A stretch of 64,000 bases of DNA from Halorarum halobium (lineage in GTDB: Archaea; Halobacteriota; Halobacteria; Halobacteriales; Haloferacaceae): contig NZ_CP134951.1 in NCBI RefSeq assembly GCF_032116555.1, positions 1 through 64,000 on the forward strand, written 5' to 3'. This document shows positions 22,578 through 59,015 of the stretch, in pieces (the stretch's first letter is position 1; each line of letters starts with the position of its first letter). Both the position numbers and the translations under genes were made by a program. The notes under the pieces were generated by a model. That model had not been told where the DNA came from. It worked only from the letters and a program-made list of their open reading frames with translations, and did no database searches.

Positions 22578-22850
22578 CGCGGCGGAGACGAGGACGCGAC
22601 TCCGTTTCGTTATCCCCCTCGTAATCGGCGCTGGCGCACCGTCGACCCGACCGGACCGTCGCCCGTCGCCGGGTAGCCTGACCGTTCGAGCGGTCACCGT
22701 CCGCATTACAAACCTCCAGACTGCACTGCTGAAAGGTGTGATTACAGTGAGTCCGTCCGACGAAACCGGGAGCTATCGACGCCCGGCCGCGGCGCGCTCG
22801 ACGCCGGAGCGACCGGTTCCCACGGGCCAGGACGGCTCCGCCGGGGCGGA

Positions 22851-23078
22851 ATGACCTCCCCGAAGACCGCCATTCTGGTGGCCGACGCCGCCGTCGGCCT
22901 GGCCATCGGTAACGTGCTCGCCATGCTGCTCGTGGTGACCCACCCGGTCCAGATGTCGACCATGCTGCTCGTCAGGAACGTCTTCATCGCCGGCTTCGTC
23001 GCCGGCGTCCTCATCACGCTGCTCATCACGGGTGCCCGCGACGCACACCGGCTCGGCCTGCTGACCAGACACTCGTAG
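22851..23078 (+). CDS. Small two-TM membrane protein
   Basis: 75 aa, two hydrophobic segments, GC3-rich codons. Confidence 0.6.
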   Translation: MTSPKTAILVADAAVGLAIGNVLAMLLVVTHPVQMSTMLLVRNVFIAGFVAGVLITLLITGARDAHRLGLLTRHS

Positions 23079-23245
23079 CCCGTCGGCGTCGCCGGTCCAC
23101 GTCGACGGGAGTCCTAGCAGCTCGAGAACGGCTCGACGGCCGACGGCGACGAGTCGCGGCCGGCGAACGCGATCCCGGAGTCGGCCCCCGACTAACGCCG
23201 GGAAGTGGCCGTCTTACGAACACGTGCGGGCGGCAGTAGTCCCGT

Positions 23246-23638
23246 GTGAGCACGGACCATCCGACCCCCGAGAAACGCGCCCGTCGCCTCGGAACGCCCT
23301 CGCCGGGGGTCGGCGTCTTCGCGCTCGTCCTCACCCAGGCCGGCGATCTCGTCACGACGCTCGTCGCCCTCCGGTCGGTGCCGGCGCTCGAGGAGGCAAA
23401 CGTCGTCGTCGCCCGGGCGATCGCGGCGTTCGGGCCGACCGTCGGCCTGACCGTGGCATCGGTCGTCGCGGTCGGCAGCCTCGTGGCCGCGACGGAGCTT
23501 GGCGCGGCGATCGTGCGCGACCACGCCGACGGCTCTCGACGGGTGGTGGGCGCGGTTCGACTGCTCGGTTACGGCCCGGCGACGGCGCTCAACGCGGGCG
23601 TCGTTGCCCACAACGTGCTGTTGCTTGCGACGGTCTGA
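23246..23638 (+). CDS. Membrane protein (DUF5658-like)
   Basis: GDLVTT...L.EAN.V....A.FG motif and 3 TM segments. Confidence 0.65.
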   Translation: MSTDHPTPEKRARRLGTPSPGVGVFALVLTQAGDLVTTLVALRSVPALEEANVVVARAIAAFGPTVGLTVASVVAVGSLVAATELGAAIVRDHADGSRRVVGAVRLLGYGPATALNAGVVAHNVLLLATV

Positions 23639-23753
23639 CGGCCGGGCACCCGTCCGGACGGCGTCGCTGCCGCTCGATCGGTTCGCGGGCGTCGGGACCG
23701 TTCGTGCGTCCGGGGGACGTCCGTTCAGCCATCCGGGACGTCCGGCGTCCCGG

Positions 23754-24032
23754 TCAGTCGAGCAGGTCCTGGGTCTGAATGAGGCTCCAGGTCTCCCGAC
23801 CCTCCTCCGTGATCCCGTACACGCGTCCCTTGCGTCGCTCCTCGGGAACGAGCAGTTCGACGAGTTCGCGCTCGCGCAGCCCGCGGAGCGCCCGCGAGAC
23901 GTGCGTGACCGCGAGGTCCTCGTCGTCGGCGATGCCCGAGGGCGTCGCCGGGCTGTCGGCCAGCCGACCGAGGACGGCGACCCGGTAGCGCGAGCTGATG
24001 ACGTAGCCGACCACGTCCCAGTCGTCGCTCAT
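23754..24032 (-). CDS. Small winged-HTH regulator (ArsR/MarR-like)
   Basis: SSRYR..VL..L...PATPS.IA....L.VTHVSRAL..L....LVELLVPEERRKGRVY.IT. Confidence 0.85.
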   Translation of the reverse strand: MSDDWDVVGYVISSRYRVAVLGRLADSPATPSGIADDEDLAVTHVSRALRGLRERELVELLVPEERRKGRVYGITEEGRETWSLIQTQDLLD

Positions 24033-24168
24033 GCGTCCGGTCCCCCGGTCGATCCTCCGGCGGCCTCGACCCGGTGTGGATGGGTTCCTGAGTTCATCGG
24101 TCCATGCTGTGTGCCCGCGAGGCGGGCCCGTTCGGTCTCCCCCGCGCAGGGGGTGGCTGTACGGCGGC

Positions 24169-24726
24169 TCATCGGCGGCGGCGCTCCACGAGCGTCATCT
24201 CGCGCCCGTTCGTCACGAACCGCGTGTACACGTACTGTGCGACGGTGACCGCCAGGAACGCCCCGACGACGACGACGCCCGCGACGGCGTCCGGGACGCC
24301 GGCGAACAGCGGCGCGTCGACGACGGTGAGCAGGTAGAACAGGCCGCCGACCGCGGCGGTGCCGATGTAGAGCGCCTGCCACGGCGGCTCCTCCCGTTCC
24401 TCCTCGGGCAGATACCGCTCCAGCTGCCCGACCGTCCCCGTGAGCTCGATCTCGCCGCTGTCGGGGTCGTAGTCGACGATGCCGGCGTTGCGTAGCTTCG
24501 GGATGTGTGTCTGGTACAGTGAGACGTACACCCGTTTCTCCTGCTGGTCGGTTAGCTCTTCGGCCGGCACCTGGTTCTCCCAGGCGGCGACTTCCCGTGC
24601 GAGCGCGGTCAGTTCGATCGGGCGGCCGTGCTCACGAAGGTACGAGATGACGAAACGACGCCTGGGGTTACTCAGGAGGTCGTACACCTCGTTCTGCGAC
24701 AGCCTACCGTGCTCTGACTCGGACAT
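24169..24726 (-). CDS. Membrane-anchored HTH protein (DUF7344-like)
   Basis: LLSNPRRR..I.YL, LAREVAAWE, KRVYVSLYQTHIPKL, then two TM helices. Confidence 0.85.
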   Translation of the reverse strand: MSESEHGRLSQNEVYDLLSNPRRRFVISYLREHGRPIELTALAREVAAWENQVPAEELTDQQEKRVYVSLYQTHIPKLRNAGIVDYDPDSGEIELTGTVGQLERYLPEEEREEPPWQALYIGTAAVGGLFYLLTVVDAPLFAGVPDAVAGVVVVGAFLAVTVAQYVYTRFVTNGREMTLVERRRR

Positions 24727-24876
24727 CAGTCGGGGCTCGTGTGTTCGGCGATCGCGGGCCGCCGTTGCACCTATAGCGGTCGTTCGGCCACTTTGTTACT
24801 CCCAGGTTACGCATTGGCGACGTGAGGACGCTGCTCGGGCCCGCGCTGATTGCATACCCCCCTCGGTCCCGCCGGT

Positions 24877-26694
24877 TCATTCCACCGTGACACTCTTTGC
24901 CAGGTTTCGGGGTTTGTCGATGGACCGCCCGAGGAGGTCGGCGACGTGATACGACACGAGCTGGAGCTGCACGTTCGCCAGCACGCCGAGCGCGTCCGGG
25001 TGCGTGTCGGGCACCGGGAGGAACTCGTCGGCCAGCTCGCGGACCTTCCGTGACCCCTCGCCGGCGATGGCGATGACCGGCGCGCCGCGCGCCCGCACCT
25101 CCTCGACGTTCGCCAGCGCCTTTTCCTCGTGTCGCCCGTCGAAGACGGCGACGACGGGCGTCTCCTCGGTGACGAGCGCCAGCGGTCCGTGCTTCAGCTC
25201 AGCCGAGCCGAACCCCTCAGCGTGCTCGTATGTTATCTCTTTGAACTTAAGTGCACCTTCCAGCGCAACCGGGTGGCCGACCCCCCGACCGATGAAGAAG
25301 TACGCGTCGCGGTCGCGGTACCGGTCGGCGAGGTCGGCCACCGTCGAGTCCTCGAGGACCCGCGTGAGGTCGCTCGGGAGCCGCCGGAACGCGGCGGCGC
25401 GTTCGGCCCGGTCCTCGCTGGGCGAGCCGGTCAGGTCCTCGACGAGCCGTTCGCCGAGCAGCGACAGCGCGGTCACCTGCGAGGAGAACGTCTTCGTCGC
25501 GGCGACGCCGATCTCCGGTCCGGCGCGGATGAACAGCGCGTCGTCGCACGTCCGGGCGGCGGTGGAGCCGACGACGTTCGTGACCGCGAGCGTCCGGGCG
25601 CCCTCGTCGCGCGCGTGGCGGATCGACTGGAGCGTGTCGGCCGTCTCCCCGCTCTGTGTGACCGCGACCACGAGCGTGTCCTCGGTGACGGGTGTGGGCG
25701 TCGTGGCGTACTCGCCGGCGCGGAACGCGTGTGCGCGGACGCCGCTCTCGACGAGGTGTTCTCTCGCGTACAGGGCCGCGTGGTAGGAGGTGCCACAGGC
25801 GACGAACTGGACGTCGCTCACCCCGTCGAACGACCCCGGCGGGAACGACGACAGCGAGACGCCGCCGTCGTCCTCGATGCGGCCGCGGACGGTCCGATCG
25901 AGCGCCTGGGGCTGCTCGTTGATCTCCTTGAGCATGTAGTGCTCGTAGCCGTCGCGCTCGGCGTCCTCCGGCTGCCAGTCGACGCTGGTCGGCTCGCGCG
26001 GTAGCCGGTCGCCGTCGGTGTCGGTGACGCGGTAGCCGGCCGGGCCGACCTCGACGACGTCGCCGTCCTCCAGGTGGACCACGCGGTCGGTGTACTCCAG
26101 GAACGACGGGACGTCGCTGGCGAGGAACTGCCGGTCGTCGTCGAGTCCGAGCACGAGCGGCGAGCCGCGCCGCGTCGCGTACAGCGATCCCTCGCCGCCA
26201 CACAGCGTCACGACGGCGAAGCTGCCCTCGAGGCGGTCGACGGCGCGCCGGAACGCCTCGTCGGTCGACCGACCGTCGTCGAGCCCCTCCTCGATGAGGT
26301 GGGGGATGACCTCGGTGTCCGTGTCGCTGGTGAACTCGTGGCCGCGCTGGCGCAGTTCCTCGCGGAGCGTCTCGTGGTTCTCGATGATCCCGTTGTGGAC
26401 GACCGAGACCGTGCCCGTGCAGTCGGTGTGCGGGTGGGCGTTCTCGTCGGTCGGCGGGCCGTGGGTGCTCCAGCGGGTGTGGCCGATGCCGATGGAGCCG
26501 GCCGGGACCGTCTCCGCGACCGCCTCACGGAGGGCGTCGATCTCGCCCGAGCGCTTCAGGACGCTGACGTCCGCTTCGCCGCGGGGGACCGCGATGCCGC
26601 TGGAGTCGTAGCCGCGGTACTCGAGGTTCGCCAGCCCGGTGAGTAACTCGTCGACGACGTCGCCCTCGGCGACGCAGGCGGTTATCCCACACAT
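24877..26694 (-). CDS. glmS: Glutamine-fructose-6-phosphate transaminase (isomerizing)
   Basis: MCGI N-terminus, LEYRGYDS, GHTRW.THG, QSGETADT, ELKHGPLAL, DKPRNLAKSVTVE. Confidence 0.97.
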   Translation of the reverse strand: MCGITACVAEGDVVDELLTGLANLEYRGYDSSGIAVPRGEADVSVLKRSGEIDALREAVAETVPAGSIGIGHTRWSTHGPPTDENAHPHTDCTGTVSVVHNGIIENHETLREELRQRGHEFTSDTDTEVIPHLIEEGLDDGRSTDEAFRRAVDRLEGSFAVVTLCGGEGSLYATRRGSPLVLGLDDDRQFLASDVPSFLEYTDRVVHLEDGDVVEVGPAGYRVTDTDGDRLPREPTSVDWQPEDAERDGYEHYMLKEINEQPQALDRTVRGRIEDDGGVSLSSFPPGSFDGVSDVQFVACGTSYHAALYAREHLVESGVRAHAFRAGEYATTPTPVTEDTLVVAVTQSGETADTLQSIRHARDEGARTLAVTNVVGSTAARTCDDALFIRAGPEIGVAATKTFSSQVTALSLLGERLVEDLTGSPSEDRAERAAAFRRLPSDLTRVLEDSTVADLADRYRDRDAYFFIGRGVGHPVALEGALKFKEITYEHAEGFGSAELKHGPLALVTEETPVVAVFDGRHEEKALANVEEVRARGAPVIAIAGEGSRKVRELADEFLPVPDTHPDALGVLANVQLQLVSYHVADLLGRSIDKPRNLAKSVTVE

Positions 26695-27438
26695 CGGGTG
26701 GCTCCCTCTCGAGACCGGTCGTGCGCCTGTACGAGTGATTGTGACGGTGGTGCCGCCGATAGGGGTCCTCTCATTGGTGGCTCCCGGATGGGCGCGCCAT
26801 CCGCGTTGACGATGGGGAATGACCCGTTCGCTCCATTGTTATTCGTGCGCTGTGGGCCGTCTCCGTCGGGTTAGTCACGTCCAGCCCGTCGCGCGTCGCG
26901 GCGGCCGTATCGTGGACTGATACCGGCAAAACGGCCGAAACCGAGCGGTAGCGAACTGATAACAAAGGGGTTAGCTAGCCCCGAGACGGACGTCACATGT
27001 TAGTCATCCGCTGGGCGGGAGACGGCGCGGACGAGCGGTTCGCGCCGTCGATTCCGCCCACCACGCACCCGATCGGGCCGGATCCGGCGGTCGGCGGCTC
27101 GGGCACCGTCGGCGCGCGCGGGTGCCGACGACCCGTCGCGTGTCGCCGCCGAGCCAGATCGGGTCGCCGAGTCGTTCGAGGAGTGGGACGCGGTCGCGGT
27201 CCGTCACCCGGCCCGTCTCGACGTGTGCCGCCGCCGGCGCCGTCGGGCCGGACGCCAATCCGGGGACCGGCACCGAGCCGGGCGAGACGCTGGCGCGCGA
27301 CCGGGGAAGCAATGACCTACCGTCCCTCCGAACGAGCGAATCGGTCGACCTGCGCGGGATCCAGCGGTTTCGTCCCCGAGGCGAGGCCGTCGACACGAAC
27401 CGATAAAGAACCGCTGCCAGTGAGTTGCATAAATACAG

Positions 27439-27456
27439 CATTACGTATAAGTAATG
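27439..27456. promoter_or_regulatory. Palindrome CATTAC-GTATAA-GTAATG next to a TATA-like ATAAATA
   Basis: Inverted repeat in an AT-rich patch upstream of the second DUF7344-like gene. Confidence 0.5.
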
Positions 27457-27582
27457 TGCGTACAGACATTGTAGCTGCCCGAAACACGACGGGTGGGAAA
27501 ACGGAGTGCCGGGGTGGACGTCTCGGACGCCCCATCGAATCGAGCGGACCGTGGACGCCGGAGCGGACTCGTGGAACGAACC

Positions 27583-28191
27583 ATGTCATCGAAAGCCGGA
27601 ACCCAGAGACAGATGAACAGTAGTGAGCCGACGACCCCCGAACGCGTCGGCTCAGCGGATAGTTCCTCCCCAGAGGAGGAGAGCGCGGAGGAAGCGACCG
27701 AACAGCGAGCACGGGACCTCCCCCTCGACATCATCTTCGAGGTGTTGAAAAACGAGCGCAGACGGCTGGTCCTGGCGTACCTCCGGGACGCGGAGGGGGC
27801 CGTCACGATCGGCGAACTCGCCGAGCACATCGCCGCACACGAGAACGACATCACGCCGGCCGAGCTGAACGCCCAGCAGCGCAAGCGCGTGTACATCGGC
27901 CTCTACCAGTGTCACCTCCCCAAGATGGACGACGCGGACGCGGTCGCGTTCAACCAGGACCGCGGCATCGTCGAACTCGGGCGGAGCGCGGACACGCTGT
28001 ATCAGTATCTCGACTCCGACTCGGGGGTCGAGGACAACGCGCGGTTGCGACAGTACACGATGTTCTCGGTCGTCGGCGGGCTTGCGTTCGTCTCGGCCCA
28101 GTTCGCGGGCACGCCGATGCTCCCCGAACTCATCGTGTTCGCGGTACTGGTCGGGGTGCCCGCAGTGACGTACTTCTCGGAAGGGACGTAG
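27583..28191 (+). CDS. Membrane-anchored HTH protein (DUF7344-like)
   Basis: FEVLKNERRR, LAEHIAAHE, RKRVYIGLYQCHLPKM, two C-terminal TMs; start could be 27613. Confidence 0.85.
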   Translation: MSSKAGTQRQMNSSEPTTPERVGSADSSSPEEESAEEATEQRARDLPLDIIFEVLKNERRRLVLAYLRDAEGAVTIGELAEHIAAHENDITPAELNAQQRKRVYIGLYQCHLPKMDDADAVAFNQDRGIVELGRSADTLYQYLDSDSGVEDNARLRQYTMFSVVGGLAFVSAQFAGTPMLPELIVFAVLVGVPAVTYFSEGT

Positions 28192-28262
28192 AGACCGGGT
28201 CGGCCACCACATCGTTCCGCTCCGATAGCCGATCAGGGGGGGAGAAACCGTCCGGGGCTCCG

Positions 28263-28574
28263 TTACTCCCGGACGACGACTTGACCGTCGCTGTGAACCG
28301 TGACGCCGCAGCCGTCGAGTTTGAAGAAGACGCCGCCGTCCAGGCCGCGGCTCCGTCCGTTCATGCGGTCGCCGAACAGCGCGTTCAGCGCGTCTGGGTC
28401 GACCGCGCTGTTCAGCGGTTCCACCGTCATCGGATCCTTGTCGAGCGTCGCCGCGACGGCGGTGACGACCGCCTCGGCGACCGACTCGTCCCCGAGGTCG
28501 ATCCGGCTCCGGTGTGCGACGTCCATCGCGTTTGGTCCCCGGTCCACGGCGAGGTCGGGATCGGTCACGGTCAT
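28263..28574 (-). CDS. HalOD1 output-domain protein
   Basis: AVV.AVA......P....PL...VDPDALNALF ... VFF...GC.VTV..DG.V.V. Confidence 0.85.
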   Translation of the reverse strand: MTVTDPDLAVDRGPNAMDVAHRSRIDLGDESVAEAVVTAVAATLDKDPMTVEPLNSAVDPDALNALFGDRMNGRSRGLDGGVFFKLDGCGVTVHSDGQVVVRE

Positions 28575-28745
28575 CGGAGATCCCTCCAAAATTGCAGGCT
28601 GGTAACAGGGAATAATTCTGCTAACATGCTGATGTACGACCCGTAGTGAGTATCTGCTGTACTTTAAACTAACGAGATATCGTGGGTGCCTCGGGCGGGT
28701 ATGGAGGCCGGCCGCCGACCGACGGACTGCGTCCGGTCGCCCGGC

Positions 28746-29813: not shown

Positions 29814-29929
29814 ACGCCGACTGGCAACGGACGACGGGACCCTTGTAATGCGACGGCTATCCCGACGGAATCTCGGGAACGGCTCCTGCCGGGACGAAAA
29901 CCAGGGACTGAGTCCCGACGCCGGCCGGC

Positions 29930-31282: not shown

Positions 31283-31397
31283 GGGTGGTGCTGTCCCAGC
31301 CGGACAATAGTTATACTGCTTATACTCCGACGCCCTCGTCGTCGGTCGCGACGTCGCGTTTCGGGCCGGAACCGCACCCGTTCCGCTCGTGTGGTGG

Positions 31398-32879: not shown

Positions 32880-33127
32880 GATCTCGCCGGGGCTGTGCCC
32901 GGCAGGTCGTGCCAGCGTACGCCCACGAACGGTTTTGTTACCCGTCTCCTGTCGCGTCGCCTCGGCCGCTGGCGGACGTCAGCCGCAGGGTAAACAGGCC
33001 GAGATTACCTGACCGAAGGCCGATACGACTCGACCCGTCCGCGACGGGGACCGATCGCGGCGAAACTGGCCGCCTGCGGGCCACAGCCGCTCCATAACAA
33101 AGCCTCGCGTCCGGGACCGGAAACGCA

Positions 33128-35575: not shown

Positions 35576-35696
35576 TCCGATCCGGCCGATTCGCCCCCGG
35601 GTAACCCGCGTTCCCGTTCGGAAGGGTGTGCCAAACGGCGGGACTGCGACGTGTTGACGCACATTAACAAAGGTCGTCTCCCCACCACCGTCGCTC

Positions 35697-37058: not shown

Positions 37059-37358
37059 CCGGCACCGTCGACCCCGTTCGGCCGGCGGGACGACACGCCA
37101 CCGTCCCGCCGCGACCCCCCACGCTCCCCCGTGTATCCTGCCTATAACAATGTCCGCGTCACTACTCCACCAACCCGACTCGATGATGTGTTCGACGGGA
37201 CCCGAGGGTTCGTGTGGCCGACAGGGAGGCTCCCGACGCGGGGGGGCGACACCCCCAGCGACGGTCGCGTGTCGGCGACTCGCCGACCGCGGACCGGGCG
37301 CGGGGCGCGTCCGGCGGAGCGACGGCCCGCGTCGGCGCGGACGCGGGGGCCGGGACCG

Positions 37359-38429: not shown

Positions 38430-38430
38430 G

Positions 38431-39018: not shown

Positions 39019-39139
39019 GCCGCGGCCGGGAGCGCCCCGGCCGGCTCCGACCCGCGGGCCGCGGCACGCCGGCTCGTTCCCGGCCCTTCGGGCCAAAGGC
39101 TCTCCATAACAATGTAGCGACGGGGGCCACGACACGTCG

Positions 39140-40261: not shown

Positions 40262-40265
40262 ACCG

Positions 40266-41287: not shown

Positions 41288-41447
41288 CGGGGCTGCGACG
41301 CCGTCACGTGAGCCGGAATCCTGTCATCCGGATTTGACACTCCGCGTCAAGTTACTGGCCGATGCGTTAGCTTACTCCTAACCGTACACCGACTAACAAA
41401 GGTCCTCTTACCGAACCTAGTCACGTCGGAACCGCCGACGTGAAACA

Positions 41448-42557: not shown

Positions 42558-42599
42558 GCGCGACCGCCGGTCGTTCGCCCCGCCAGTCCTCCCGGCGGG

Positions 42600-43655: not shown

Positions 43656-43907
43656 GGATGCTGGTAGGGGTGGCCGGCGTCCGTTCCCGGACTGGCGGGA
43701 CGGCCCGTCGGGCCGTGCGTCGTTCCTCCCGGCGCTCGGGTCCGGGGATGATTCACTGGTCTGTCACGTCGCCGTCCGCGGATTTCGGCCGCGTACGTGG
43801 CGATTTCCGGGCGTTCGGACATTGTAATGGGACGGGTATCGGGCGGGTGGCTCGGGTAAGCCGGCGTTGTGGCGTCGTGACTTCCGCGACCGGCGGGCTC
43901 GGGTACG

Positions 43908-44930: not shown

Positions 44931-45038
44931 CGCCGCCCACCGCGCGAACGCTGTCGCCCGTTCATACGACCGAGCAGGGTCGGTCGCGGGATTGTTAGCC
45001 GTCCGCTTCCGGCCGGGAGCGCCCGTTCGGGCCGGGCC

Positions 45039-48350: not shown

Positions 48351-48636
48351 GTTCGGCTCCCCATCCGGACGTGGGTTCTCGTCATACACCGACCACGTCA
48401 CGGGCTTAGTTATGGAGAACCAACGCCGTCTCGTCGCGGTTTAGCCGCGGAATACCCCGGCGAGACGGGGAGCCACGATTCTCGCGGCCGGCGGTCGGCT
48501 GCGGCCCGCCCGTCGCCGTCACGGTCGAACCGCGACGAGAAGGAGCGGGTTTCCGGGCCGGTCGGCGTCGTCGGCGACCCGAACTCGCCGGCGTGGGCAC
48601 GGCGACCCGACCCGTTTCCGGACGACGCGAGCGGGT

Positions 48637-50580: not shown

Positions 50581-50664
50581 TCGGTCGCGTCGGGGGGCCG
50601 AGCCCCGTTTGTTACAACCCGCCTACCGTCCTCGGGCGGCCCGTAGCGGGCCGAACCGGCATCG

Positions 50665-50754: not shown

Positions 50755-50794
50755 TCGCTCCCGAAAACTGACCTCCCACGGTCGGCCGCCCGGC

Positions 50795-51826: not shown

Positions 51827-51914
51827 CAGTCCACCCGCGGGTGGACGGGACGCGGCTGATCGCCCGGCGTCAGGCCGGCAGCGCGCGCCCGGCGGCCGCC
51901 GCGCGTCCGCGCCG

Positions 51915-53351
51915 TCACCGCCAGCCCCTCCCCACCGTGTAGTGGGGGTGGTCGGCGCCGCCGAGGTCGACGCTGTCCCGGCCGTCGACGACCACCGTGG
52001 GCTCGTCGAACGCCGTCCAGTCGACCGCGTCGAACTCGTCGTGGGCGGTGACGACGACCACGGCGTCGACGTCACGGTCGTACATCTCCTCCAGCGGCAC
52101 CGTCTCGGCGTCGAACCCGTCGGCGTCGACGAGCGGGTCCGCGCCGAACACGGTCGCGCCGTGCTCGGAGAGCGTCGAGCAGACGCCCAGCGCCGGGCTG
52201 GCGCGCGTCTCCTTCACGCCCGCCCGGTAGGTGAGTCCGAGGACGAGCACGCGCGCGTCCGCCAGCGGACCACCGGCCGCGTGCGGGCCGTCGTCCGGGT
52301 GCGAGTCCCCGTTCGCGCGCGGCTCCCCGTCGGCGGGGACGACCCCGCCCGCCCGGAGTCCCTCCGCGACCTTCGCGGCGACGAAGCCGGGCATCGCGTC
52401 GTTCACCTCGCGCGCGGTCTCCAGGAACGGCGCTGGCGACTCCAGCCAGTTGATGAGGAAGTACGGGTAGTACGGGATGCAGTGGCCGCCCACGCCCGGG
52501 CCGGGCGTGTGGATGTCACAGAACGGCTGGGTGTTCGCGGTGTCGATGGCCTCCCGGACGTCGATCCCAAGCTCGTCGGTGAGCCGGCCGAGCTCGTTCG
52601 CCAGGGCGATGTTCGCGTCGCGGTACAGCCCCTCGAACACCTTCACCGCCTCGGCGGTGGTCGCGTCCGACACCGGCAGCACGTCGTTGTCCACGAGCGC
52701 CTCGTAGACGACGCGCGCGCTCCGGGTGCTCTCGTCGTCGACGCCGCCGACGACCTTCGGGTGCGCGCCGCGGACGTCCCGGAGCGCGCGCCCGCTGGAG
52801 GTCCGTTCGGGACAGAACGCCAGGCCGAACTCCCCGCGCCGGAGGCCGCTTTGCTCCTCCAGCAGCGGGAGCACGACGTCGCGGCAGGTCCCCGGCGGGA
52901 CGGTGGATTCGACGACCACGAGGTCGCCCGGGTACAGCCCCTCGGCGACGCCCTCGACGGCCGCCTCAAGCGTCGAGAGGTCCGGCTCCTTCGTCTCGGT
53001 GACGAGCGTCGGCACGATGAGGACGTGGACGCTCGCGTCGCGGGCGGCCGTGGCCGGGTCGCTCGTCGCCGTCAGCGAGCCGTCGGCCGAGACGTCGGCG
53101 ACCGCCTCGGGCAGTCCGGGCTCGCGTTCGACGTGGCTCTCGCCGGCGTTGATCGACGCCACCACGTCCGGGTCGACGTCGACGCCGGTGACGTTGCCGC
53201 ACGTCTCGGCGTAGACGGTCGCCAGCGGGAGCCCCATCTTGCCGAGGCCGTAGACGGCCACCGGCACCTCGCCGTTCACGAACGCCGCCCGCCTGGCCTC
53301 GTCGTCGAGGTCGGAGCCGTACAGCGACCGGATCCCGGATCGGGTCGTCAC
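51915..53351 (-). CDS. UDP-sugar (UDP-GlcNAc-type) 6-dehydrogenase, WbpA-like
   Basis: GLGKMG, VPT, ESTVPPGT, CPER..G, AE.VK..E..YRD.NIA.ANE, PGPGVGGHCIP; GTG overlaps the upstream stop. Confidence 0.9.
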   Translation of the reverse strand: MTTRSGIRSLYGSDLDDEARRAAFVNGEVPVAVYGLGKMGLPLATVYAETCGNVTGVDVDPDVVASINAGESHVEREPGLPEAVADVSADGSLTATSDPATAARDASVHVLIVPTLVTETKEPDLSTLEAAVEGVAEGLYPGDLVVVESTVPPGTCRDVVLPLLEEQSGLRRGEFGLAFCPERTSSGRALRDVRGAHPKVVGGVDDESTRSARVVYEALVDNDVLPVSDATTAEAVKVFEGLYRDANIALANELGRLTDELGIDVREAIDTANTQPFCDIHTPGPGVGGHCIPYYPYFLINWLESPAPFLETAREVNDAMPGFVAAKVAEGLRAGGVVPADGEPRANGDSHPDDGPHAAGGPLADARVLVLGLTYRAGVKETRASPALGVCSTLSEHGATVFGADPLVDADGFDAETVPLEEMYDRDVDAVVVVTAHDEFDAVDWTAFDEPTVVVDGRDSVDLGGADHPHYTVGRGWR

Positions 53352-54331
53352 GTCGGCACCTCCGTCTCCGCCCCCGGCCGCTCCCGACCGGCGGCGATGT
53401 CGTCGATGGTCCGGGCCACCTCCACGGCGCGGAGGCCGTCCTCGGCGGTGACCACCGGCTCCGCCCCGTCGCGCGCGGCGGCGACGAACGACTCCAGTTC
53501 GGCCTTCAGCGGTTCGCCGTTCTCGACGATGGGCCGCTCGACGACGCTCTCGACGCGCTCGCGCACCGCGCCGTCGTTCTCGATGTACGCCGGGGCGGTG
53601 TGTCGGTGGATCTCGACGGACTGGTTCATGTAGTCCACGCGGACCCGGCACTCGCGGGCGGTGATCCCCAGCTTCCGCACCTTCCGCTGGGTGACGCGGC
53701 TCGCCGTGAGGTCGGCGACGACGCCGTCGTCGAACCGGCAGGTCGCGGTGGCGTAGCGGTTGCCGGCCGCGCCCGCCGCGTCCACCGCGACGGGTGCCTT
53801 CCCGAGCAGCGAGCAGACCACGTCGATGTCGTGGATCATCAGGTCGAAGACGGCCGAGTCCGCGACCTCCCGCTCGCGCGGCGGGCCGAGCCGCTGGGCG
53901 TCGAGCGCGAGCACCTCGACGTTCGGGACGATGTCCGCGAGCGCCCGCACCGCGGGGTTGAACCGCTCGATGTGGCCGACTTGGAGGACCAGGTCCTCGG
54001 CCCGCGCCCGCTCGGCGAGTTCTCGCCCCCGCGGGAGGTCCTCGACGTACGGCTTCTCGACGAGCGCGTGGGTGCCAGCGTCGAGACACCGCTCTAGCAT
54101 CGAGGGGTGTGCCGCAGTCGGGACCGCGACCGAGACGAGGTCCGCCCGCGAGAGCAGGTCCCCCGCCTCCCGCGCGACCGTGCCGTAGTCGCGGGCGACC
54201 GTCCGGGCGGCCTCGGCGTCGAGGTCGGCGACGCCGACGAGTTCCGCGTTCGGGAGCTCGCTGTACACCCGGGCGTGGTTGCGCCCCATGCTGCCGACGC
54301 CGACGACGCCGGCCGAAAGCGTCTCGCTCAT
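53348..54331 (-). CDS. Gfo/Idh/MocA oxidoreductase, WbpB-like
   Basis: GVGSMG..H, VEKP, VGHIERFNP, DLMIHDID. Confidence 0.9.
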   Translation of the reverse strand: MSETLSAGVVGVGSMGRNHARVYSELPNAELVGVADLDAEAARTVARDYGTVAREAGDLLSRADLVSVAVPTAAHPSMLERCLDAGTHALVEKPYVEDLPRGRELAERARAEDLVLQVGHIERFNPAVRALADIVPNVEVLALDAQRLGPPREREVADSAVFDLMIHDIDVVCSLLGKAPVAVDAAGAAGNRYATATCRFDDGVVADLTASRVTQRKVRKLGITARECRVRVDYMNQSVEIHRHTAPAYIENDGAVRERVESVVERPIVENGEPLKAELESFVAAARDGAEPVVTAEDGLRAVEVARTIDDIAAGRERPGAETEVPT

Positions 54332-55449
54332 GCGCTCCGGCGGCCTCGATCGGCCGCCAGTTCCGGGGAGTCTCCGGTCGTGTACGATTCGACGGCCGCA
54401 CAGATCCGTCGGAGGTCGTCGGTCGAGAGCGACGGATGGACCGGCAGCGAGAGCACCTGTTCGGCGGCGCGCTCGGCGACCGGGCAGTCGGCGTCGAAGC
54501 CCTCGTAGGCCGGCTGCTCGTGGATGGGAACCGGGTAGTAGATGCCCGATCCGACGCCCGCGTCGGCCAGGTGCTCGCGGAGCCCGTCGCGGTCGTCGTG
54601 TCTGACCGTGTACTGGTGGTAGACGTGGCGCGACCCCGGCGGCTCGTTCGGCGTGATGACGCCCGCGTCCGAGAGCCGCTTCGTGAGGTAGGCGGCGTGT
54701 CCGCGCCGGGCGATGGTGTGGTCCGTGAGCTTCGGGAGCTGTGCCCGCCCGATGGCCGCACAGAGGCTCGTCATCCGGAAGTTGTGGCCGACCTCGCCGT
54801 GTTCGTACCCGGAGATCCGGCCGTGGTCCGCGAAGCGGGCGACCCGCTCTGCCAGCTCCGCGCGGTCGGTCGTCACCATCCCGCCCTCCCCCGTCGTCAT
54901 GTTCTTCGTCGGGTAGAAGGAAAAGCAGGCGGCGTCGCCGAACGAGCCGACGCGCCGGCGGTCGAACTCCGCGCCGTGGGCCTGCGCGGCGTCCTCGACG
55001 AGCGCCAGGTCGTGCTCGTCGGCGATCTCGCGCAGGTGGTCCATCGCGGCCGGCAGGCCGTAGAGGTGGACCGCGAGGATCGCTTCCACGTCGTCGCGCT
55101 CGCGGACGACCGCCTCCACCTCGCGCGGGTCGAGCGTGAACGTCGAGGGGTGGACGTCCGCGAAGACGGGTTCGGCGCCCGCGAGGCGGACGGCGTTCGC
55201 GCTGGCGACGAACGAGAACGGCGTCGTGACGACCGCGTCGCCCTCGCCGATCCCGAGCGCCTCGAACGTGGCGTGGAGCGCGGTCGTCCCGTTCGTCGTG
55301 GCGACGCCGTGGGCCGCCCCACAGAACTCGGAGAACTCGTCCTCGAAGCGCCGGACCTCCTCGCCGTCGGCGAGCTGGCCGCTCTCGAGGACGCGCTGGA
55401 CGCCCTCGCTCTCGGCGTCGCCGATCCGGGGGTTCGCGATGGGGATCAT
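54328..55449 (-). CDS. DegT/DnrJ/EryC1 aminotransferase, WbpE-like
   Basis: NGTTAL, VHLYG, EDAAQAHG, SFYPTKN..TGEGG, G.NFR. Confidence 0.93.
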   Translation of the reverse strand: MIPIANPRIGDAESEGVQRVLESGQLADGEEVRRFEDEFSEFCGAAHGVATTNGTTALHATFEALGIGEGDAVVTTPFSFVASANAVRLAGAEPVFADVHPSTFTLDPREVEAVVRERDDVEAILAVHLYGLPAAMDHLREIADEHDLALVEDAAQAHGAEFDRRRVGSFGDAACFSFYPTKNMTTGEGGMVTTDRAELAERVARFADHGRISGYEHGEVGHNFRMTSLCAAIGRAQLPKLTDHTIARRGHAAYLTKRLSDAGVITPNEPPGSRHVYHQYTVRHDDRDGLREHLADAGVGSGIYYPVPIHEQPAYEGFDADCPVAERAAEQVLSLPVHPSLSTDDLRRICAAVESYTTGDSPELAADRGRRSA

Positions 55450-56021
55450 CGCTCCGTGTTCCCCCCCTGGAGCCGCTCGGGCAGCGGCTGGTGTTCGGCG
55501 GGCGAGCCGACCGCGAGGGTGTCCGCGGGCACGTCCTCGGTGACGACCGCGCCCGCGGCGACGAACGCGCGCTCCCCGACGGTGACGCCCGGGAGCACGG
55601 TCGCGTTCGCGCCGACGGTCGCGTCGTCCTCGAGGGTCGGCCCCTCCAGTTCGACCTCCTGGCGCAGCGGGTAGTCGTCGTTCGTGAGGATCGCGCCCGG
55701 GCCGACGAACACCCGGTCGCCGACGGTGGTGTTCGTCGGGAGGTACGCGGCGGTCTGGATGCTCACCTCGTCGCCGACGGTCGAGCCCCCGTCGATGACC
55801 GCGCGGGTGCCGACGAGCACGTCGTCGCCGACGACGGTGTCCTCGCGCACCAGCGCGTCGTGGCCGGTCGTGAACCCCTCGCCGATCTCGACGTCGCCGT
55901 ACACGACGGTGCCGCGCCGGATCGTCGCGCCCGGCCCGATGGTAGGCGTCGAGCCGTCCGGGTCGCCGAGCGTGACGTTCGGGTGGACCTCGGCCCCGTC
56001 GCCGAGCGTCGCGTTCGTCAC
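55446..56021 (-). CDS. Hexapeptide-repeat N-acetyltransferase, WbpD-like
   Basis: TTGH, FVGP...TND.YP, GANATVLPGV.VG..A.V.AGAVVT.DVP; GTG start after GGAGG. Confidence 0.9.
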   Translation of the reverse strand: MTNATLGDGAEVHPNVTLGDPDGSTPTIGPGATIRRGTVVYGDVEIGEGFTTGHDALVREDTVVGDDVLVGTRAVIDGGSTVGDEVSIQTAAYLPTNTTVGDRVFVGPGAILTNDDYPLRQEVELEGPTLEDDATVGANATVLPGVTVGERAFVAAGAVVTEDVPADTLAVGSPAEHQPLPERLQGGNTER

Positions 56022-56399
56022 TGGCGGCCTCCGTCCGGCCCGGGCGTCCGGGCCGGCTGGCCGCTCCTCCGTCCGGTTCGTCGGGTCTGTGTGTGTGTCC
56101 GAGACATGGATGCGGACTGCACGGTCGCTCCCGGCAGTATCGGGTCTTGACCGGCATCGGACCATTGTTATGTGCGCCTTTTGTCGGGTTAACAGCCGGC
56201 TGTCGCGTCGCTCTCACGCGATTCGGCCGCCTACCCGCGAGGCGAAACCCGCATTGACGGCCGCGAGCGACGCCGGAACGGGCGATGCTGGCTGCTCGCC
56301 CGCGACGGTAGACCCTGTCTCACGGTCCGCTGACGGTCCCATGCGCGCCCCGCCGTTTTCACCGGCCATCCGACACGTTCGCCACCCGGCTCGACGCCG

Positions 56400-57752
56400 T
56401 CACTTGCAGCCGGCGTTCGGGAGCCGGTCGCCGCCGGCCGTGAGCCGGTCGACCGACACGTCGCTGATGTCGATGTTCGAGTTCCGGAACTGGTAGGGCG
56501 CGTTCGTCACCGCCAGATACGTGTCGCTGATCGAGCCGTTCACCCTGATCGCCTGGACGCCGCCGCGCTCGGTGCCGGGCTGGTGGACACAGAGCCCGCT
56601 GAACCGGCAGTCGTCCCGGTGGCTCGCGTAGATCGCCGACCCCGTCGCCGCCTCCCCGGTGATGACGACGTCCTCGATGTGGAACGAGCCGCGCCGGGCG
56701 AAGACGACGTCGGTCGGGCTCTTGATCCGGATCGCGTTGACGCCGTCCGCGTCGACGCGGATCCGGGTGTCCCGCATCGTCGCCGACTCCTGTTCGGACG
56801 CGAACGTCACCGCCCCGTCGCTGGAGGTCACGTCCAGCATCTCGACGAGACACTTGTCGATCAGGACGTCGCGGCCGCCGCGCAGCCGGATGCCGCGCAT
56901 GTTCTCGAAGCCGTCGGGCGAGTCGTCACAGCGGACGTGGACGCCGCGGACGACGCTCCCCGGCCCGGCGTTCACGCGGACGCTCGCCACGCCGTTGTTC
57001 GCGTAGTAGCCGCCGAGCACGCGAACTCGTCCCTCCGGGGGGTTCGCGTAGAGGCCGTTGTCCGGGAACCCCTCGATACGGCAGTCGACGAACGAGACGT
57101 CCCCGCGCGTGTCGTCGCCGACCTCACACCCGGTGTTCGACCACTCGCCCACGGACCCGTCGGGCATCCGGAGCCGCTCGACGAGCCCCGTCCCGTCCGG
57201 GCTGGCGACGTCGACGCGGACCCCGTCGCTCTCCACGTCCTGCCTCCCGGTGACCGTGACGTCCCGCAGGACCAGTTTGTCGTCCACGCGCGCGGCGATC
57301 GGCCGTCCGCCCGTGTCCGGCTCCCGGAAGTCGAACTCCAGCCCCGAGACCAGCAGCTGGGACGCGCTCCCGGGGTCGCCGAGCCTGAACAGCGGCTTCC
57401 GGAACCCCTTCGGCGGGACGACGGTCGCGTTGTCGGCGACGAGCCCGAACTTGGAGAACGAGGAGAACGCCCAACTGTCGGCCAGCCGGTAGCGCCCCGG
57501 CGGGAGGTACAGCATCCGGCCGTCGCCGGCCACCGCCTCGAGAACGCCGCCGAGTTCGCGGTCGGCGAGCGGCCCCTCGACCTCGGCTTCGAGGTCGACG
57601 AACTCGTCGAACCCCCAGGCGTCGGCGATCGCGTCTAGCTGCGGGTTTCCGCCGGGCGTCGCCGCGGGCCACTCCCCGGGAACCGCCTCCCCACACCCCG
57701 CGAGTCCGGCGGTCACGCCCGCGGCCGCGGTCAGTAGCGTCCGCCGTTTCAT
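56400..57752 (-). CDS. Tat lipoprotein with right-handed beta-helix (pectin-lyase-like) domain
   Basis: MKRRTLL, LAGC lipobox, LYLPPGRY, GFPDNGLY, YANNGVA.VR. Confidence 0.8.
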   Translation of the reverse strand: MKRRTLLTAAAGVTAGLAGCGEAVPGEWPAATPGGNPQLDAIADAWGFDEFVDLEAEVEGPLADRELGGVLEAVAGDGRMLYLPPGRYRLADSWAFSSFSKFGLVADNATVVPPKGFRKPLFRLGDPGSASQLLVSGLEFDFREPDTGGRPIAARVDDKLVLRDVTVTGRQDVESDGVRVDVASPDGTGLVERLRMPDGSVGEWSNTGCEVGDDTRGDVSFVDCRIEGFPDNGLYANPPEGRVRVLGGYYANNGVASVRVNAGPGSVVRGVHVRCDDSPDGFENMRGIRLRGGRDVLIDKCLVEMLDVTSSDGAVTFASEQESATMRDTRIRVDADGVNAIRIKSPTDVVFARRGSFHIEDVVITGEAATGSAIYASHRDDCRFSGLCVHQPGTERGGVQAIRVNGSISDTYLAVTNAPYQFRNSNIDISDVSVDRLTAGGDRLPNAGCK

Positions 57753-57813
57753 ACGGGTGTCACGACGCTCACGTCGGTTTGTTATGACGGTCGTGTGAGC
57801 CGGTAGACCGCCC

Positions 57814-58752
57814 TTACGCGGACTGGACGGCGTCCGTGTCGGCCAGCGCCTCGTAGCGCTCTCCGGGCGGGCCGATCCACGCGCCGAGCTCCCTCGCGTA
57901 CTCGATCAGCCGCCGGTAGAGCAGCCGCTGGTTCGGGTACTCGCGGTCGTTGAACTTGTTCGGGTGCCACAGCACGGTCATCACCGCGCCGTTCTCGGCG
58001 GCCTCCTCGAGCACCCGCTCACAGCCCGCCCACGCCGCCGCGAGCTCGTGTTCCGGGTCCGGCAGCGCGTTCTCCATGATCGTCAGCGGGAACACCACGA
58101 ACTCGTCGTCGAACGGCCGTCGAACGCCGTAGCCGTTCTCGAACCCGTACGTCGTACTCGACCCGAGCGAGGCGTCGTACGCCAGGCCGACGTCGGCCTG
58201 TCGCTCCCACGTCTCGGGCACCTCCAGGTTGAGGTAGTGCTGTCTCCCGCCGCGGACCTCGTGGCCGAGGACGCGTTCGAGCGCCGCCTTCTCGCGTCCG
58301 AGGCGGTCGCGGTCCGTGTAGGACTCGTAGGAGCCGTGGAGCCCGACCTCCCACCCGCGGTCGTCCAGTTTCCGGATCACGTCCACGATGTCGGGGTCCT
58401 CGAGCGAGTAGCGGCCGGCGTAGAGCTGCCAGCTCTTCGGGCTGAGCCACTCGCGGGGCGGCCTGTCGCGCAGGAGGTCCTGCTCGTTCAGGAAGTAGAA
58501 CGCCGACCTGACGCCCAGTTCCTCCTCCAGGGCCATCACCTCCTCGAACTGCCAGTACGGGTTGACGTCCGGGAGCAGCGTCCGAAGGTGGTAGGGGTCG
58601 CGTTCGGTCACCGCGTAGTACAGCGACTGGTACGTCTTGTACGGCCGGTCGACGTCGTGGGTCAGACACAGCGAGAACGAGTGCCCCTCGGGCACGCCGG
58701 CCCGTTCACCCATCCCGTCCGAACCGGCTCGTGTCGCTGGCCGGTCGTTCAC
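57814..58752 (-). CDS. Polysaccharide deacetylase family protein
   Basis: LTHDVD, WEVGLHGS, GGRQHYL, YDASLG, PLTIME, LWHP; start may be ATG 58713. Confidence 0.88.
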   Translation of the reverse strand: MNDRPATRAGSDGMGERAGVPEGHSFSLCLTHDVDRPYKTYQSLYYAVTERDPYHLRTLLPDVNPYWQFEEVMALEEELGVRSAFYFLNEQDLLRDRPPREWLSPKSWQLYAGRYSLEDPDIVDVIRKLDDRGWEVGLHGSYESYTDRDRLGREKAALERVLGHEVRGGRQHYLNLEVPETWERQADVGLAYDASLGSSTTYGFENGYGVRRPFDDEFVVFPLTIMENALPDPEHELAAAWAGCERVLEEAAENGAVMTVLWHPNKFNDREYPNQRLLYRRLIEYARELGAWIGPPGERYEALADTDAVQSA

Positions 58753-59015
58753 CTCGCGTCCTCCGTCGCCCGATTCCGCGTCCTCGGGTCATGTCGTCCA
58801 CCGTGGACGTTCGACCCGTCGCCTCCATAGTTATGGACCGCCTGCGGGTCGGGACGGACGAGGACGCGCCTCCCGACGCGGTTCCGGTCGTGAACCGAAC
58901 GGGTCGAGCGCCTGGCGGACTCGGGCGAGTTCCGGGACCGGACCGCTCCGGGCGTCCGGCGGCCGGGGGTATGGAACCCATAACAAATAAACGAGGTTCG
59001 GTACTCCGGGTCGAA

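Follow-up and report, generated by a model that had tools for sequence, protein, structure and literature searches.

What switches on the envelope-glycan genes of Halorarum halobium, and through which promoters? The window, the first 64,000 nucleotides of contig C3 (NZ_CP134951.1), carries a glycan locus in which the original prediction saw a short non-canonical motif, TWAC(A/T/G)AW, marking the whole locus as one regulon. All 22 listed sites and their 8-mers were recovered where they had been placed, as were the ten motif-to-start-codon distances (31-35 nt), the five quoted upstream half-sites, and the TTTAT boxes at 13397 and before orc1. The sites, with their matrix scores, and the associated genes are as follows.

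16865..16872, minus strand: extra motif copy TAACAATG (20.5 bits), 3' of orc1 and not followed by any called gene; absent from the earlier list.
22605..22612, minus: motif TAACGAAA (15.8 bits), 35 nt 5' of a 34-aa membrane peptide gene (22473-22577).
22706..22713, plus: motif TTACAAAC (13 bits), ahead of a 75-aa membrane protein gene (ATG 22851); its uORF (GTG at +32, 38 codons, 22738-22854) overlaps that ATG by 4 nt.
23214..23221, plus: weak copy TTACGAAC (3.9 bits), with GTG 23246 (130-aa membrane protein) 32 nt downstream; doubtful as a regulon member.
23754..24032, minus: gene for a 92-aa winged-helix protein that co-occurs with the cluster.
24169..24726, minus: DUF7344a (copy a), a winged-helix protein with a C-terminal membrane segment; regulon member.
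24791..24798, minus: motif TAACAAAG (17.5 bits), 72 nt 5' of DUF7344a; its uORF (GTG start, 14 codons) overlaps the DUF7344a ATG by 1 nt.
26834..26841, minus: motif TAACAATG (16.1 bits), 147 nt 5' of glmS (24877-26694).
26960..26967, plus: motif TAACAAAG (20 bits), ATG at +37; the frame that follows (208 codons, 26997-27623, without Pfam match) overlaps the DUF7344b start by 11 nt.
27613..28191, plus: DUF7344b, with a predicted ArsR-like winged-helix domain (27718-27987) and a hydrophobic C-terminus.
29841..29848, minus: motif TTACAAGG (10.2 bits), 35 nt 5' of archaeal glmU (28746-29813).
31306..31313, minus: motif TAACTATT (11.9 bits), 31 nt 5' of glmM (29930-31282); an ordinary AACTATT-type box is another possible reading.
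32933..32940, minus: motif TAACAAAA (21 bits), 61 nt 5' of a GT2 glycosyltransferase gene (31398-32879).
33095..33102, plus: motif TAACAAAG (25.8 bits), 33 nt 5' of a PKD/CARDB surface protein gene (33128-35575).
35665..35672, plus: motif TAACAAAG (11.6 bits, lacking the upstream YA), 32 nt 5' of a metallo-beta-lactamase-fold gene (35697-37058).
37145..37152, plus: motif TAACAATG (23.3 bits), 5' of a DUF1616 gene; the start is either an in-frame GTG at +43 or follows a 59-codon uORF (37183-37362) overlapping ATG 37359 by 4 nt.
39107..39114, plus: motif TAACAATG (21.1 bits), 33 nt 5' of a Gfo/Idh/MocA oxidoreductase gene (39140-40261).
41394..41401, plus: core TAACAAAG with poor flanks (2 bits), 5' of a ferritin-like gene; membership doubtful.
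43820..43827, minus: motif TTACAATG (15.9 bits), 172 nt 5' of a FemAB-like GNAT gene (42600-43655).
44990..44997, minus: motif TAACAATC (13.6 bits), 5' of an epimerase gene (43908-44930), to which its uORF (ATG at +32, 12 codons, 44965-44927) is joined by an ATGA overlap.
48405..48412, minus: motif TAACTAAG (13.3 bits), 5' of genes for a large membrane protein and a flippase (45039-46508).
50607..50614, minus: motif TAACAAAC (19 bits), 34 nt 5' of a GNAT gene followed by a GT4 gene (48637-50580).
56163..56170, minus: motif TAACAATG (20.7 bits), 149 nt 5' of a five-gene run (50795-56021: acetyltransferase, aminotransferase, dehydrogenase, nucleotide-sugar dehydrogenase, DUF354).
57777..57784, minus: motif TAACAAAC (20.1 bits), 32 nt 5' of a Tat-lipoprotein-like gene (56400-57752).
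58826..58833, minus: motif TAACTATG (19.8 bits), 5' of a deacetylase-like gene (start 58713), which its uORF (GTG at +32, 31 codons, 58801-58706) overlaps by 8 nt.
58981..58988, plus: motif TAACAAAT (21.6 bits), 35 nt 5' of a PIG-L, ATP-grasp and PHP run (59016-61365).

Intergenic TWACAAW occurs 17 times in the 6,423 intergenic nt of C3:22,000-64,500, against 0.41 copies expected from 424,238 GC-matched intergenic nt outside the locus (P ~5e-22). TTTAT is not enriched in the same intergenic DNA (4 observed, 4.8 expected), and each of five look-alike control words is absent from it; the clustering is therefore not a product of chance. The motif lies 30-38 nt before the called start in 8 of 27 locus genes and in 11 of 2,370 others, the calls being those of an in-house hexamer caller (3,243 genes, 76% coding) that misses AT-rich genes. 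When scored with a matrix built from 34 sites, all from other genomes, 17 of the 22 listed sites reach about 13 bits or more, three lie at 10-12 (29848, 31313, 35665) and two fall below 5 (23214, 41394). Matches of at least 13 bits number 20 in C3 and none in reversed C3; genome-wide they number 43 and 40 (reversed), so that isolated chromosomal matches are individually non-significant. Ordinary T-rich boxes at four genes in or beside the locus (21646, 22340, 40592, 63665) make "whole" an overstatement, and the putative regulon has further members outside.

A consensus from 163 sites in several haloarchaeal families, selected by the TAACAAW core alone, reads R(-44)Y(-43)A(-42)-N8-A(-33)T(-32)W(-31)A(-30)C(-29)N(-28)A(-27)W(-26)G(-25). 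T-32, A-30, C-29 and A-27 are near-invariant, and of 33 sites selected without reference to position -29, 27 have C there. Also conserved are A at -42 (134 of 163), A at -33 (116), W at -11 (117) and a purine at +1 (129). The canonical haloarchaeal promoter is described as BRE CGAAA, TATA TTWT and WW at -10 (PMC4983044). With the promoter so described, the motif shares A at -33, W at -27/-26, WW at -11/-10, a YR start with its purine and a mostly leaderless ATG. It differs in having A-C-N for T-30/-29/-28, with A-C-N-A-W at -30 to -26 in place of TTWT, an invariant T-32, RYA at -44 to -42 and no CGAAA: positions -37 to -34 carry less than 0.1 bit each, and A at -33 is the sole conserved base. 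Among 123 sites from loci retrieved without use of the motif, ATG stands at +32, +33 and +34 in 18, 11 and 14 cases and in at most 7 at any other offset. Ordinary starts of the source genome, with A at -34/-33, T at -30 to -26 and an A-rich -11/-10, share this register. Because the motif keeps register with the -11/-10 WW and the +1 purine, it is placed over BRE and TATA, and by position it looks like a core promoter. The predicted YANC-like half-site proved to be an element exactly 11 nt away, with YA at -43/-42 in 111 of 163 sites and in 4-17 at other offsets, but its C is unconserved (YANC 33, YANG 59), and three bases, RYA, are repeated rather than four.

About 40 of 121 Halobacteria genomes hold at least eight bipartite matches and threefold their control, and the element occurs in most families of the class, in up to about 30 promoters per genome. 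It precedes glycan-cluster genes, small stress-type genes (DUF378, DUF1328, PRC-barrel, ferritin-like), CetZ and DUF7344 regulators, and many distant copies appear to be followed by short leaderless uORFs, each coupled to its main gene. The motif is also present in the orthologous cluster of Haloferax volcanii, HVO_A0190-A0200, which is jointly near silent in three growth phases (expression 1-10, compared with 20-4,000 for A0180-A0183 and A0187-A0189, neighbouring genes with canonical promoters). Most of the cluster does not respond to stationary phase, and low salt raises HVO_A0194 alone, 2.4-fold. The H. volcanii TSS table has no row at the positions predicted by the motif in the cluster; among its 25 rows with TAACAAW, TTACAAAG or TTACAATG, inspected by eye, one (HVO_1838n2) has the motif at -32, which chance allows. 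Register, conservation across families, co-occurrence with the cluster and silence of the H. volcanii orthologues all support a promoter class of its own that occupies the BRE/TATA position and marks envelope-glycan genes as one regulon. No account of the element was found in the literature searched, and we consider it probably an undescribed alternative core promoter class of Halobacteria, normally silent.

As judged from sequence, the best reading of this class, and the one we favour, is a promoter that depends on an activator and has a C within its TBP site. The bop TATA box of Halobacterium salinarum, GTTACA, is reported together with an upstream activating sequence (PMC2121645, PMC1447603). 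As described there, bop/Bat resembles our motif in its C-containing box without recognisable BRE and in an upstream activating sequence common to a co-regulated gene set; the motif likewise pairs a deviant TATA box with an upstream element at fixed distance (the YA above). The bop regulon is, however, small and lineage-restricted in these accounts and shares its UAS, whereas here the core itself is shared, by about 30 promoters per genome at most and across most Halobacteria families, with a three-base upstream part.

A core TFB paralogue with a changed BRE-reading helix could instead read ATAAC together with the single TBP and no dedicated activator, for instance a short TfbA-type TFB in which TPVTLR replaces SEVTIRNR, by factor switching as at the hsp5 promoter. 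That promoter, with TFB2/TFBb, is presented as general-factor-directed regulation in which core elements alone give heat induction via specific TFBs (PMC2396416); specificity would lie in core elements in both cases, but the motif core is not TATA-like and no motif-specific TFB or TBP was found. The invariant -33 to -29 does span the BRE/TATA junction, and the short clade with the altered helix is present in motif-rich genomes. Yet a tree of 60 of 78 matched TFBs from five plus five genomes, with the source genome's own, mixes motif-rich and motif-poor genomes in every clade seen and yields no clade confined to the former; a TFB common to all of them may still read the motif. The conserved A at -42, placed by TFB geometry, would moreover lie one turn beyond BRE, and we regard this explanation as unlikely.

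Quite unlikely, too, is a sigma-like factor that takes the place of TBP, contacts the element at both of its parts and brings TFB and RNA polymerase to a TATA-free promoter. The swap of T-30, T-29 and T-28 for near-invariant A, C and A/N, an invariance of T-32, A-30, C-29 and A-27 beyond the need of a merely weak TATA box, and the two-part layout with fixed spacing would suit it. Against it, W-27, W-26, G-25, A-33, WW and YR keep the normal register, and no additional TBP- or TFB-like gene was found in the window. C-containing boxes also serve ordinary genes: TTCAA/TACAA boxes at 28-30 nt indicate that TBP tolerates C, and at H. volcanii gapII a canonical CGAAA precedes TAACTATG at -32 (by eye). 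It is improbable that the element is a repressor operator or a non-promoter signal (T-rich terminator, opposite-strand TATA box), with promoters elsewhere. Its reverse complement, CWTTGTTA, is T-rich and at C3:102214 lies 24-31 nt before an opposite-strand gene, and the mapped start of HVO_A0198 uses an ordinary TATA box 2 nt 5' of the motif; another TATA box at -30 was, however, matched by regex in just 2 of 27 locus genes, and on the sense strand WW, YR and ATG stand in phase with the motif. The H. volcanii CsmR and TbsP operators, given as TATCA-N4-TGATA or WGAAATWAASTC (PMC13286277, PMC11023807), differ from the motif consensus. An altered-specificity TBP paralogue recognising TAACAAAG deserves next to no credence: the motif sits at the TATA position and divergent extra TBPs occur in some genomes (G029, G067), but both TBPs of the source genome are canonical and share their DNA-facing strands (contact roles presumably as in yeast TBP), and motif-rich G209 (30 sites, 2 in the control) and G179 (21, 1) have a single TBP each, 81-82% identical to that of the source genome, which argues against the predicted alternative TBP.

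Which protein might activate the promoter? The 92-aa winged-helix protein is absent from several motif-rich genomes and was rejected as general reader. We tentatively propose, at somewhat less than even confidence, a membrane-anchored DUF7344 winged-helix protein, either DUF7344b or its sister paralogues. The DUF7344b domain (E<=1e-24) occurs in 24 of 28 motif-rich and 4 of 32 motif-poor genomes of a first set and in 29 of 30 and 4 of 26 of a second; pooled, this gives 53 of 58 against 8 of 58, related genomes not being independent, so that co-occurrence P values are overstated. Four of the motif-poor carriers examined have motif copies adjoining the gene, and in genus g42, where the cluster occurs without DUF7344b, sites are few. 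Motif-rich genomes without a close DUF7344b are G032, G270 and G002 (best E 6e-21, 2e-19, 2e-16), and G083, which lacks it, retains three strong sites. DUF354 has a similar distribution (24 of 28 against 3 of 32), and DUF7344b may, like it, be a cluster passenger; other DUF7344-TM paralogues are nearly universal (57 of 60 genomes). The DUF7344b model (pLDDT 95.6) predicts a winged-helix fold, possibly of ArsR topology, with a best structural match of Z 9.0 (2p4w; rmsd 2.2, 70 aligned) tied with CadC, CzrA and SrnR, and a best Foldseek E of 0.014. ArsR-like folds usually bind inverted repeats; the motif is not palindromic and repeats three bases only.

On the activator reading, the single ordinary TBP would occupy AACAAWG, a weak box with a C in it, and an ordinary TFB would form the bridge to RNA polymerase. 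Since the site offers no good BRE or TATA, it would fire only with a sequence-specific activator, which would bind at two RYA/ATA points separated by one helical turn and recruit the basal factors. We postulate that this activator is most likely a membrane-anchored DUF7344 protein activated by membrane release, whose signal would be amplified because many DUF7344 genes are themselves preceded by the motif. If promoter and main gene are far apart, the ribosome would often load on a short leaderless uORF and be handed over at the overlapping stop and start. Translational coupling by termination-reinitiation has been described (PMC6728339); as reported there it resembles our case in the ATGA and TGATG overlaps between upstream frame and main gene, the upstream frame here differing in being a leaderless uORF, short and of low coding score, with which the transcript begins.

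Bacterial alternative sigma regulons (SigB, RpoS, sporulation sigmas) similarly combine their own bipartite promoter with envelope and small stress-type genes and with downstream regulators as members; the system described here uses archaeal basal machinery without a sigma factor, and the analogy is functional only. Among archaeal activators, GvpE, Ptr2, TFB-RF1 and EarA bind beside BRE and recruit TFB or TBP, so that a winged-helix or HTH protein rescues weak basal elements, as proposed here; their promoters keep a recognisable TATA box, whereas our motif overlaps and replaces it. EarA is presented as such an activator in PMC13286277. The output would be a polysaccharide coat of amino sugars and uronic acids, small stress-type proteins and the CetZ tubulin, in a protective or resting cell state outside routine culture. 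A motif before a cell-coat sugar cluster and stress genes, near-silent in laboratory culture, suggests an undescribed switch into an otherwise hidden cell state.

C3, whose first 64 kb form the window, is a 196-kb replicon of a 3.68-Mb haloarchaeal genome, and its nearest named plasmid relatives belong to Halobaculum. Between 24.9 and 65 kb it encodes glmS, glmU and glmM, all above NCBIfam cut-offs, together with a nucleotide-sugar dehydrogenase, GT2, GT4, DUF354, DUF1616, a flippase, two GNAT proteins (one FemAB-like), deacetylases, a PKD surface protein and two DUF7344 genes. A run of dehydrogenase, aminotransferase and acetyltransferase genes resembles the diacetamido-uronic-acid pathway, a putative name based on matches below cut-offs. 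Genes were called with our own hexamer model (3,243 genes, 76% coding), which misses AT-rich genes.

The original prediction was that a motif, TWAC(A/T/G)AW, at the BRE/TATA position marks this glycan locus as one regulon. Its 22 motif sites, ten start distances and five half-sites are all correct in the sequence. The word TWACAAW occurs 17 times in the 6,423 intergenic nucleotides of the locus, where GC-matched intergenic DNA predicts 0.41; TTTAT and five control words show no enrichment in the same intergenic DNA. The motif precedes the start by 30-38 nt in 8 of 27 locus genes, compared with 11 of 2,370 other genes. With a scoring matrix built from 34 sites, all of them in other genomes, 17 of the 22 sites reach about 13 bits or more, three lie at 10-12 and two fall below 5. 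At a threshold of at least 13 bits, C3 contains 20 hits and reversed C3 none; the whole genome gives 43 hits versus 40 when reversed, so that a chromosomal hit carries weight only when its position and gene context support it. The motif very probably represents a real promoter class. The genes at 21646, 22340, 40592 and 63665 have ordinary boxes. The window further contains one strong motif copy and several small frames:

16865-16872, minus strand: strong motif copy, lying downstream of orc1 and not followed by a called gene; possible start of a small RNA or a small ORF
20983-21087, minus strand: small ORF, CxxC...CxxC peptide frame without a clear ATG
22221-22340, minus strand: 39-aa peptide with homologues in two compared loci, L023 and L134, motif-led in L023
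22473-22577, minus strand: small ORF, 34-aa membrane peptide
61505-61723, minus strand: 72-aa protein with homologues in loci L025, L136 and L145

Rfam gave no match anywhere in the window, including the region of the copy at 16865-16872. Upstream of orc1, at 18580-19920, a TTTCGAGTGCT-type word (in some copies CACACCGGTTTTCGAGTGCT) is repeated; these repeats are probably the origin recognition boxes of the C3 replicon.

To define the element, 163 intergenic sites from the fetched loci and the window were chosen on TAACAAW alone. Counted from the first T, A stands at -10 in 134 sites and at -1 in 116; 117 sites have W at +21, and 129 have a purine at +32. As this set includes loci fetched by a motif-plus-ATG pattern, the count was repeated on the 123 sites from loci fetched otherwise; here, ATG falls at +32, +33 and +34 in 18, 11 and 14 sites, with at most 7 at any other offset, and YA, W and the purine recur in 88, 91 and 98. 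In the same genome, ordinary starts (1,924 genes) are marked by A at -34/-33, T at -30 to -26 and an A-rich -11/-10. The phase of ATG, WW and purine, read together with this profile, places the first T of the motif at -32. The consensus read from these sequences is R-44 Y-43 A-42, N8, A-33 T-32 W-31 A-30 C-29 N-28 A-27 W-26 G-25. Compared with the canonical haloarchaeal promoter, the element retains the normal register and exchanges TTT for ACN, and falls outside that class. C-29 is regained in 27 of 33 sites chosen without requiring C, and the predicted variable base at -28 is likewise borne out in sites so chosen. A one-turn YANC direct repeat had also been proposed; its YA does stand at exactly -11/-10 from the first T in 111 of 163 sites, but YANC itself occurs in only 33 sites versus 59 with YANG.

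Genome-wide, ACAA, GCAA and CCAA peak 35-37 nt before starts as BRE variants, and TTCAA/TACAA boxes lie 28-30 nt before ordinary starts as C-containing TATA variants. We rejected the reading of the motif as a shifted BRE, with ACAA as a common BRE word, because no T-rich box follows it and the WW/YR phase places it 6 nt further down. At position 102214 (+) of C3, the motif reverse complement CTTTGTAA lies 24-31 nt ahead of an RdfA-like gene on the opposite strand and resembles an ordinary TATA box.

Many of the predicted copies distant from a main gene are accounted for by coupled uORFs, that is, short leaderless upstream frames. Among 164 sites of at least 13 bits, 61 lead directly into a gene and 44 open a uORF; the other 59 lack an ATG at 30-38. 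Of these 44, 35 end -11 to +20 nt from an in-frame main-gene start (control frames 81/218), and 22 overlap that start by 1 or 4 nt (48/218). This coupling is not special to the motif: uORFs are scarcer at ordinary TATA promoters (52 versus 529 direct), and there 31 of 52 end near the start and 20 of 52 overlap it. Coupled leaderless uORFs are possibly a general haloarchaeal route to translating leadered mRNAs. A long frame precedes DUF7344b, a winged-helix gene at 27613-28191 (+):

26997-27623, plus strand: 208-codon frame without a Pfam match, filling the 650-nt leader of DUF7344b and overlapping its start by 11 nt

The distance from the DUF7344b domain to the closest strong site is about 200-290 nt in some other genomes.

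The conservation of the motif across Halobacteria is real. One scan for DUF354 relatives yielded 22 loci, in which the motif precedes the same gene types in Natronomonas, Halorubrum, Haladaptatus, Salinibaculum, Halogeometricum and Natrialbaceae; it is absent from the DUF354 locus of Halobacterium yunchengense in this comparison, where AT-rich loci cannot discriminate. In about 40 of 121 Halobacteria genomes, the bipartite pattern matches at least eight times and three times as often as in the reversed control (G029, for example, 34 versus 4). Across 62 genomes from other classes of the phylum, counts mostly equal controls, with a modest excess in three (G302, G358, G360). When 28 motif-rich and 32 motif-poor genomes were picked by eye from 301, DUF354 was found in 24 and 3 of them, respectively, kin among these not being independent. 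H. mediterranei pHM500 carries 11 sites versus 3 in the reversed control, and the H. hispanica pHH400 region 6, fewer than the 9 of its control. One genus, g42, keeps the cluster with a decayed motif: no site remains in 40 kb of G187 (L131, L132) and three in 60 kb of G083 (L128-L130), and ordinary T-rich boxes precede some cluster orthologues, which suggests a shift of this cluster to constitutive expression.

Outside the glycan set, the motif is found ahead of genes for DUF378, DUF1328, DUF7511 and DUF7563, for sulfatases, a pilin and CetZ tubulins, for a Bat-type HTH_10 regulator and a conserved 119-aa membrane protein, and ahead of several DUF7344 genes. DUF378 and DUF1328, like PRC-barrel and ferritin-like proteins, have a putative link to bacterial general stress. 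Further likely members in the same genome lie outside the window:

G000:C1:2793513, 2844798, 2846017, 179154, 1519755 and C3:64152, 66976, 141282: GNAT genes, a phosphodiesterase-like gene, a CetZ-like tubulin, a Tat lipoprotein and the conserved 119-aa membrane protein

H. volcanii pHV4 carries the cluster as HVO_A0190-A0200, with sites before A0198 (17 bits, 33 nt), A0200 (22 bits), A0192 (11) and A0194 (9); the A0200 promoter lies at pHV4 202881 (plus strand) and that of A0198 at 202702 (minus strand). The accessible part of the dRNA-seq table for exponential growth (PMC4983044) has no start row at the motif-predicted positions of this cluster; it maps leaderless starts for neighbours, and the A0198 start from an ordinary box just upstream of the motif. 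In the available portion of S9 of PMC13286277, the cluster genes stand at 1-10 over three growth phases and four strains and their canonical-promoter neighbours A0180-A0183 and A0187-A0189 at about 16-4,000, with stationary phase raising A0185, A0186 and A0200. Low salt raises A0194 alone in the cluster, 2.4-fold, in the accessible data of PMC12852389. Among 25 H. volcanii TSS rows with the core, in the part of the table available, HVO_1838n2 is by eye the only one with the core at -32, accompanied by A-33, A-42, W-11 and ATG at +1; among the 30 of 78 variant TSS rows covered, also read by eye, gapII has TAACTATG at -32, behind CGAAA. Both give weak support to the -32 register, and they show that the ordinary machinery can use such a C-containing box. 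On pHV4 (L208, 186-205 kb), the silent glycan cluster has an rdfA/SMC-like pair on one side and the CRISPR-Cas locus on the other, both immediately adjacent; C3 likewise bears an RdfA/SMC-like pair, at about 99.5-102 kb.

On balance, we favor an activator-dependent model of the motif promoter. TBP-DNA structures tolerate a C. TBP would bind AACAAWG as a weak box, a step drawn from the TTCAA/TACAA boxes at ordinary genes and from bop, whose TATA box is given as GTTACA in the accessible text of PMC2121645 and PMC1447603. The missing BRE and TATA would hold the promoter off until an activator touches RYA and ATA, one turn apart, and then recruits the basal factors; the promoter would work like the bop/Bat promoter.

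A DUF7344 protein is a tentative candidate for the motif reader. The own genome has 21 DUF7344 matches. With the DUF7344b domain (27718-27987) profiled at 1e-24, a threshold fixed before the run, the domain was found in 24 of 28 motif-rich and 4 of 32 motif-poor genomes, kin not being independent, and in a second set chosen by bipartite counts from the 121 genomes, in 29 of 30 versus 4 of 26. Three g42 genomes lack DUF7344b; motif-rich G080, a member of the same family, has it. In four carriers counted as motif-poor (G038, G011, G251, G004), 1-4 sites lie next to the gene; the 4 kb read in G079 and G080 contain no site. Counter to this assignment, G032, G270 and G002 are motif-rich without DUF7344b, G235 has only a partial copy, and G083 keeps its three sites without it. 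The protein has a hydrophobic tail and a predicted winged-helix fold, closest to ArsR-type and Pyrococcus heat-shock regulators (Z 8.8-9.0). Its sister copy DUF7344a was rejected, with homologues in 57 of 60 genomes and no clean split by motif; the ESM Atlas returned DUF7344 clusters only. Also rejected was a 92-aa winged-helix gene (23754-24032, minus strand), found at E<1e-25 in 16 of 28 motif-rich versus 3 of 32 motif-poor genomes; G209, G179 and G029 have no close homologue, which speaks against a reader role, and the best E in a PDB sequence search is 0.0027.

A more far-reaching version, which we consider improbable, is a sigma-factor-like switch, in which a membrane-tethered DUF7344 factor, freed by an envelope or starvation cue, would read a TATA-free core promoter with TBP as passenger or absent, and start a class-wide dormancy or encystment programme. 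Such a programme would comprise a polysaccharide wall, CetZ tubulin and stress proteins, and permanent-wall lineages would have moved the same genes onto ordinary promoters. Less probable still is reading by a core TFB. The predicted alternative TBP was rejected: both own TBPs are canonical, and a single TBP is encoded in motif-rich G209 (30 sites vs 2) and likewise in G179 (21 vs 1). For the TFBs, five motif-rich and five motif-poor genomes gave 78 matches, and a tree of 60 of these contains no clade private to the motif-rich. One single-cyclin mini-TFB, whose recognition helix differs, is encoded at G000:C1:1442320-1442628 (minus strand). A TBP-free factor, to which the element would be a TATA-free promoter, is slightly less likely again; the C-containing boxes at ordinary genes speak against it.

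Whether archaea possess distinct promoter classes, akin to alternative sigma use, has been debated ever since the Halobacterium genome appeared, mainly on the basis of how many TBP/TFB paralogues there are. The literature searched, with most subscription journals outside its scope, yielded no description of the motif; two TAACAA matches are a primer and a mutated operator, and the element is apparently undescribed so far. It provides a specific promoter consensus, found class-wide in place of the TATA box, with named test sites in H. volcanii and H. mediterranei; a promoter that is tightly shut off and answers to its own activator would be useful as an expression tool. As a whole, the motif brings out a large conserved gene programme of polysaccharide coat, stress proteins and tubulin that is barely expressed under laboratory conditions and is a candidate for a haloarchaeal resting or desiccation state.
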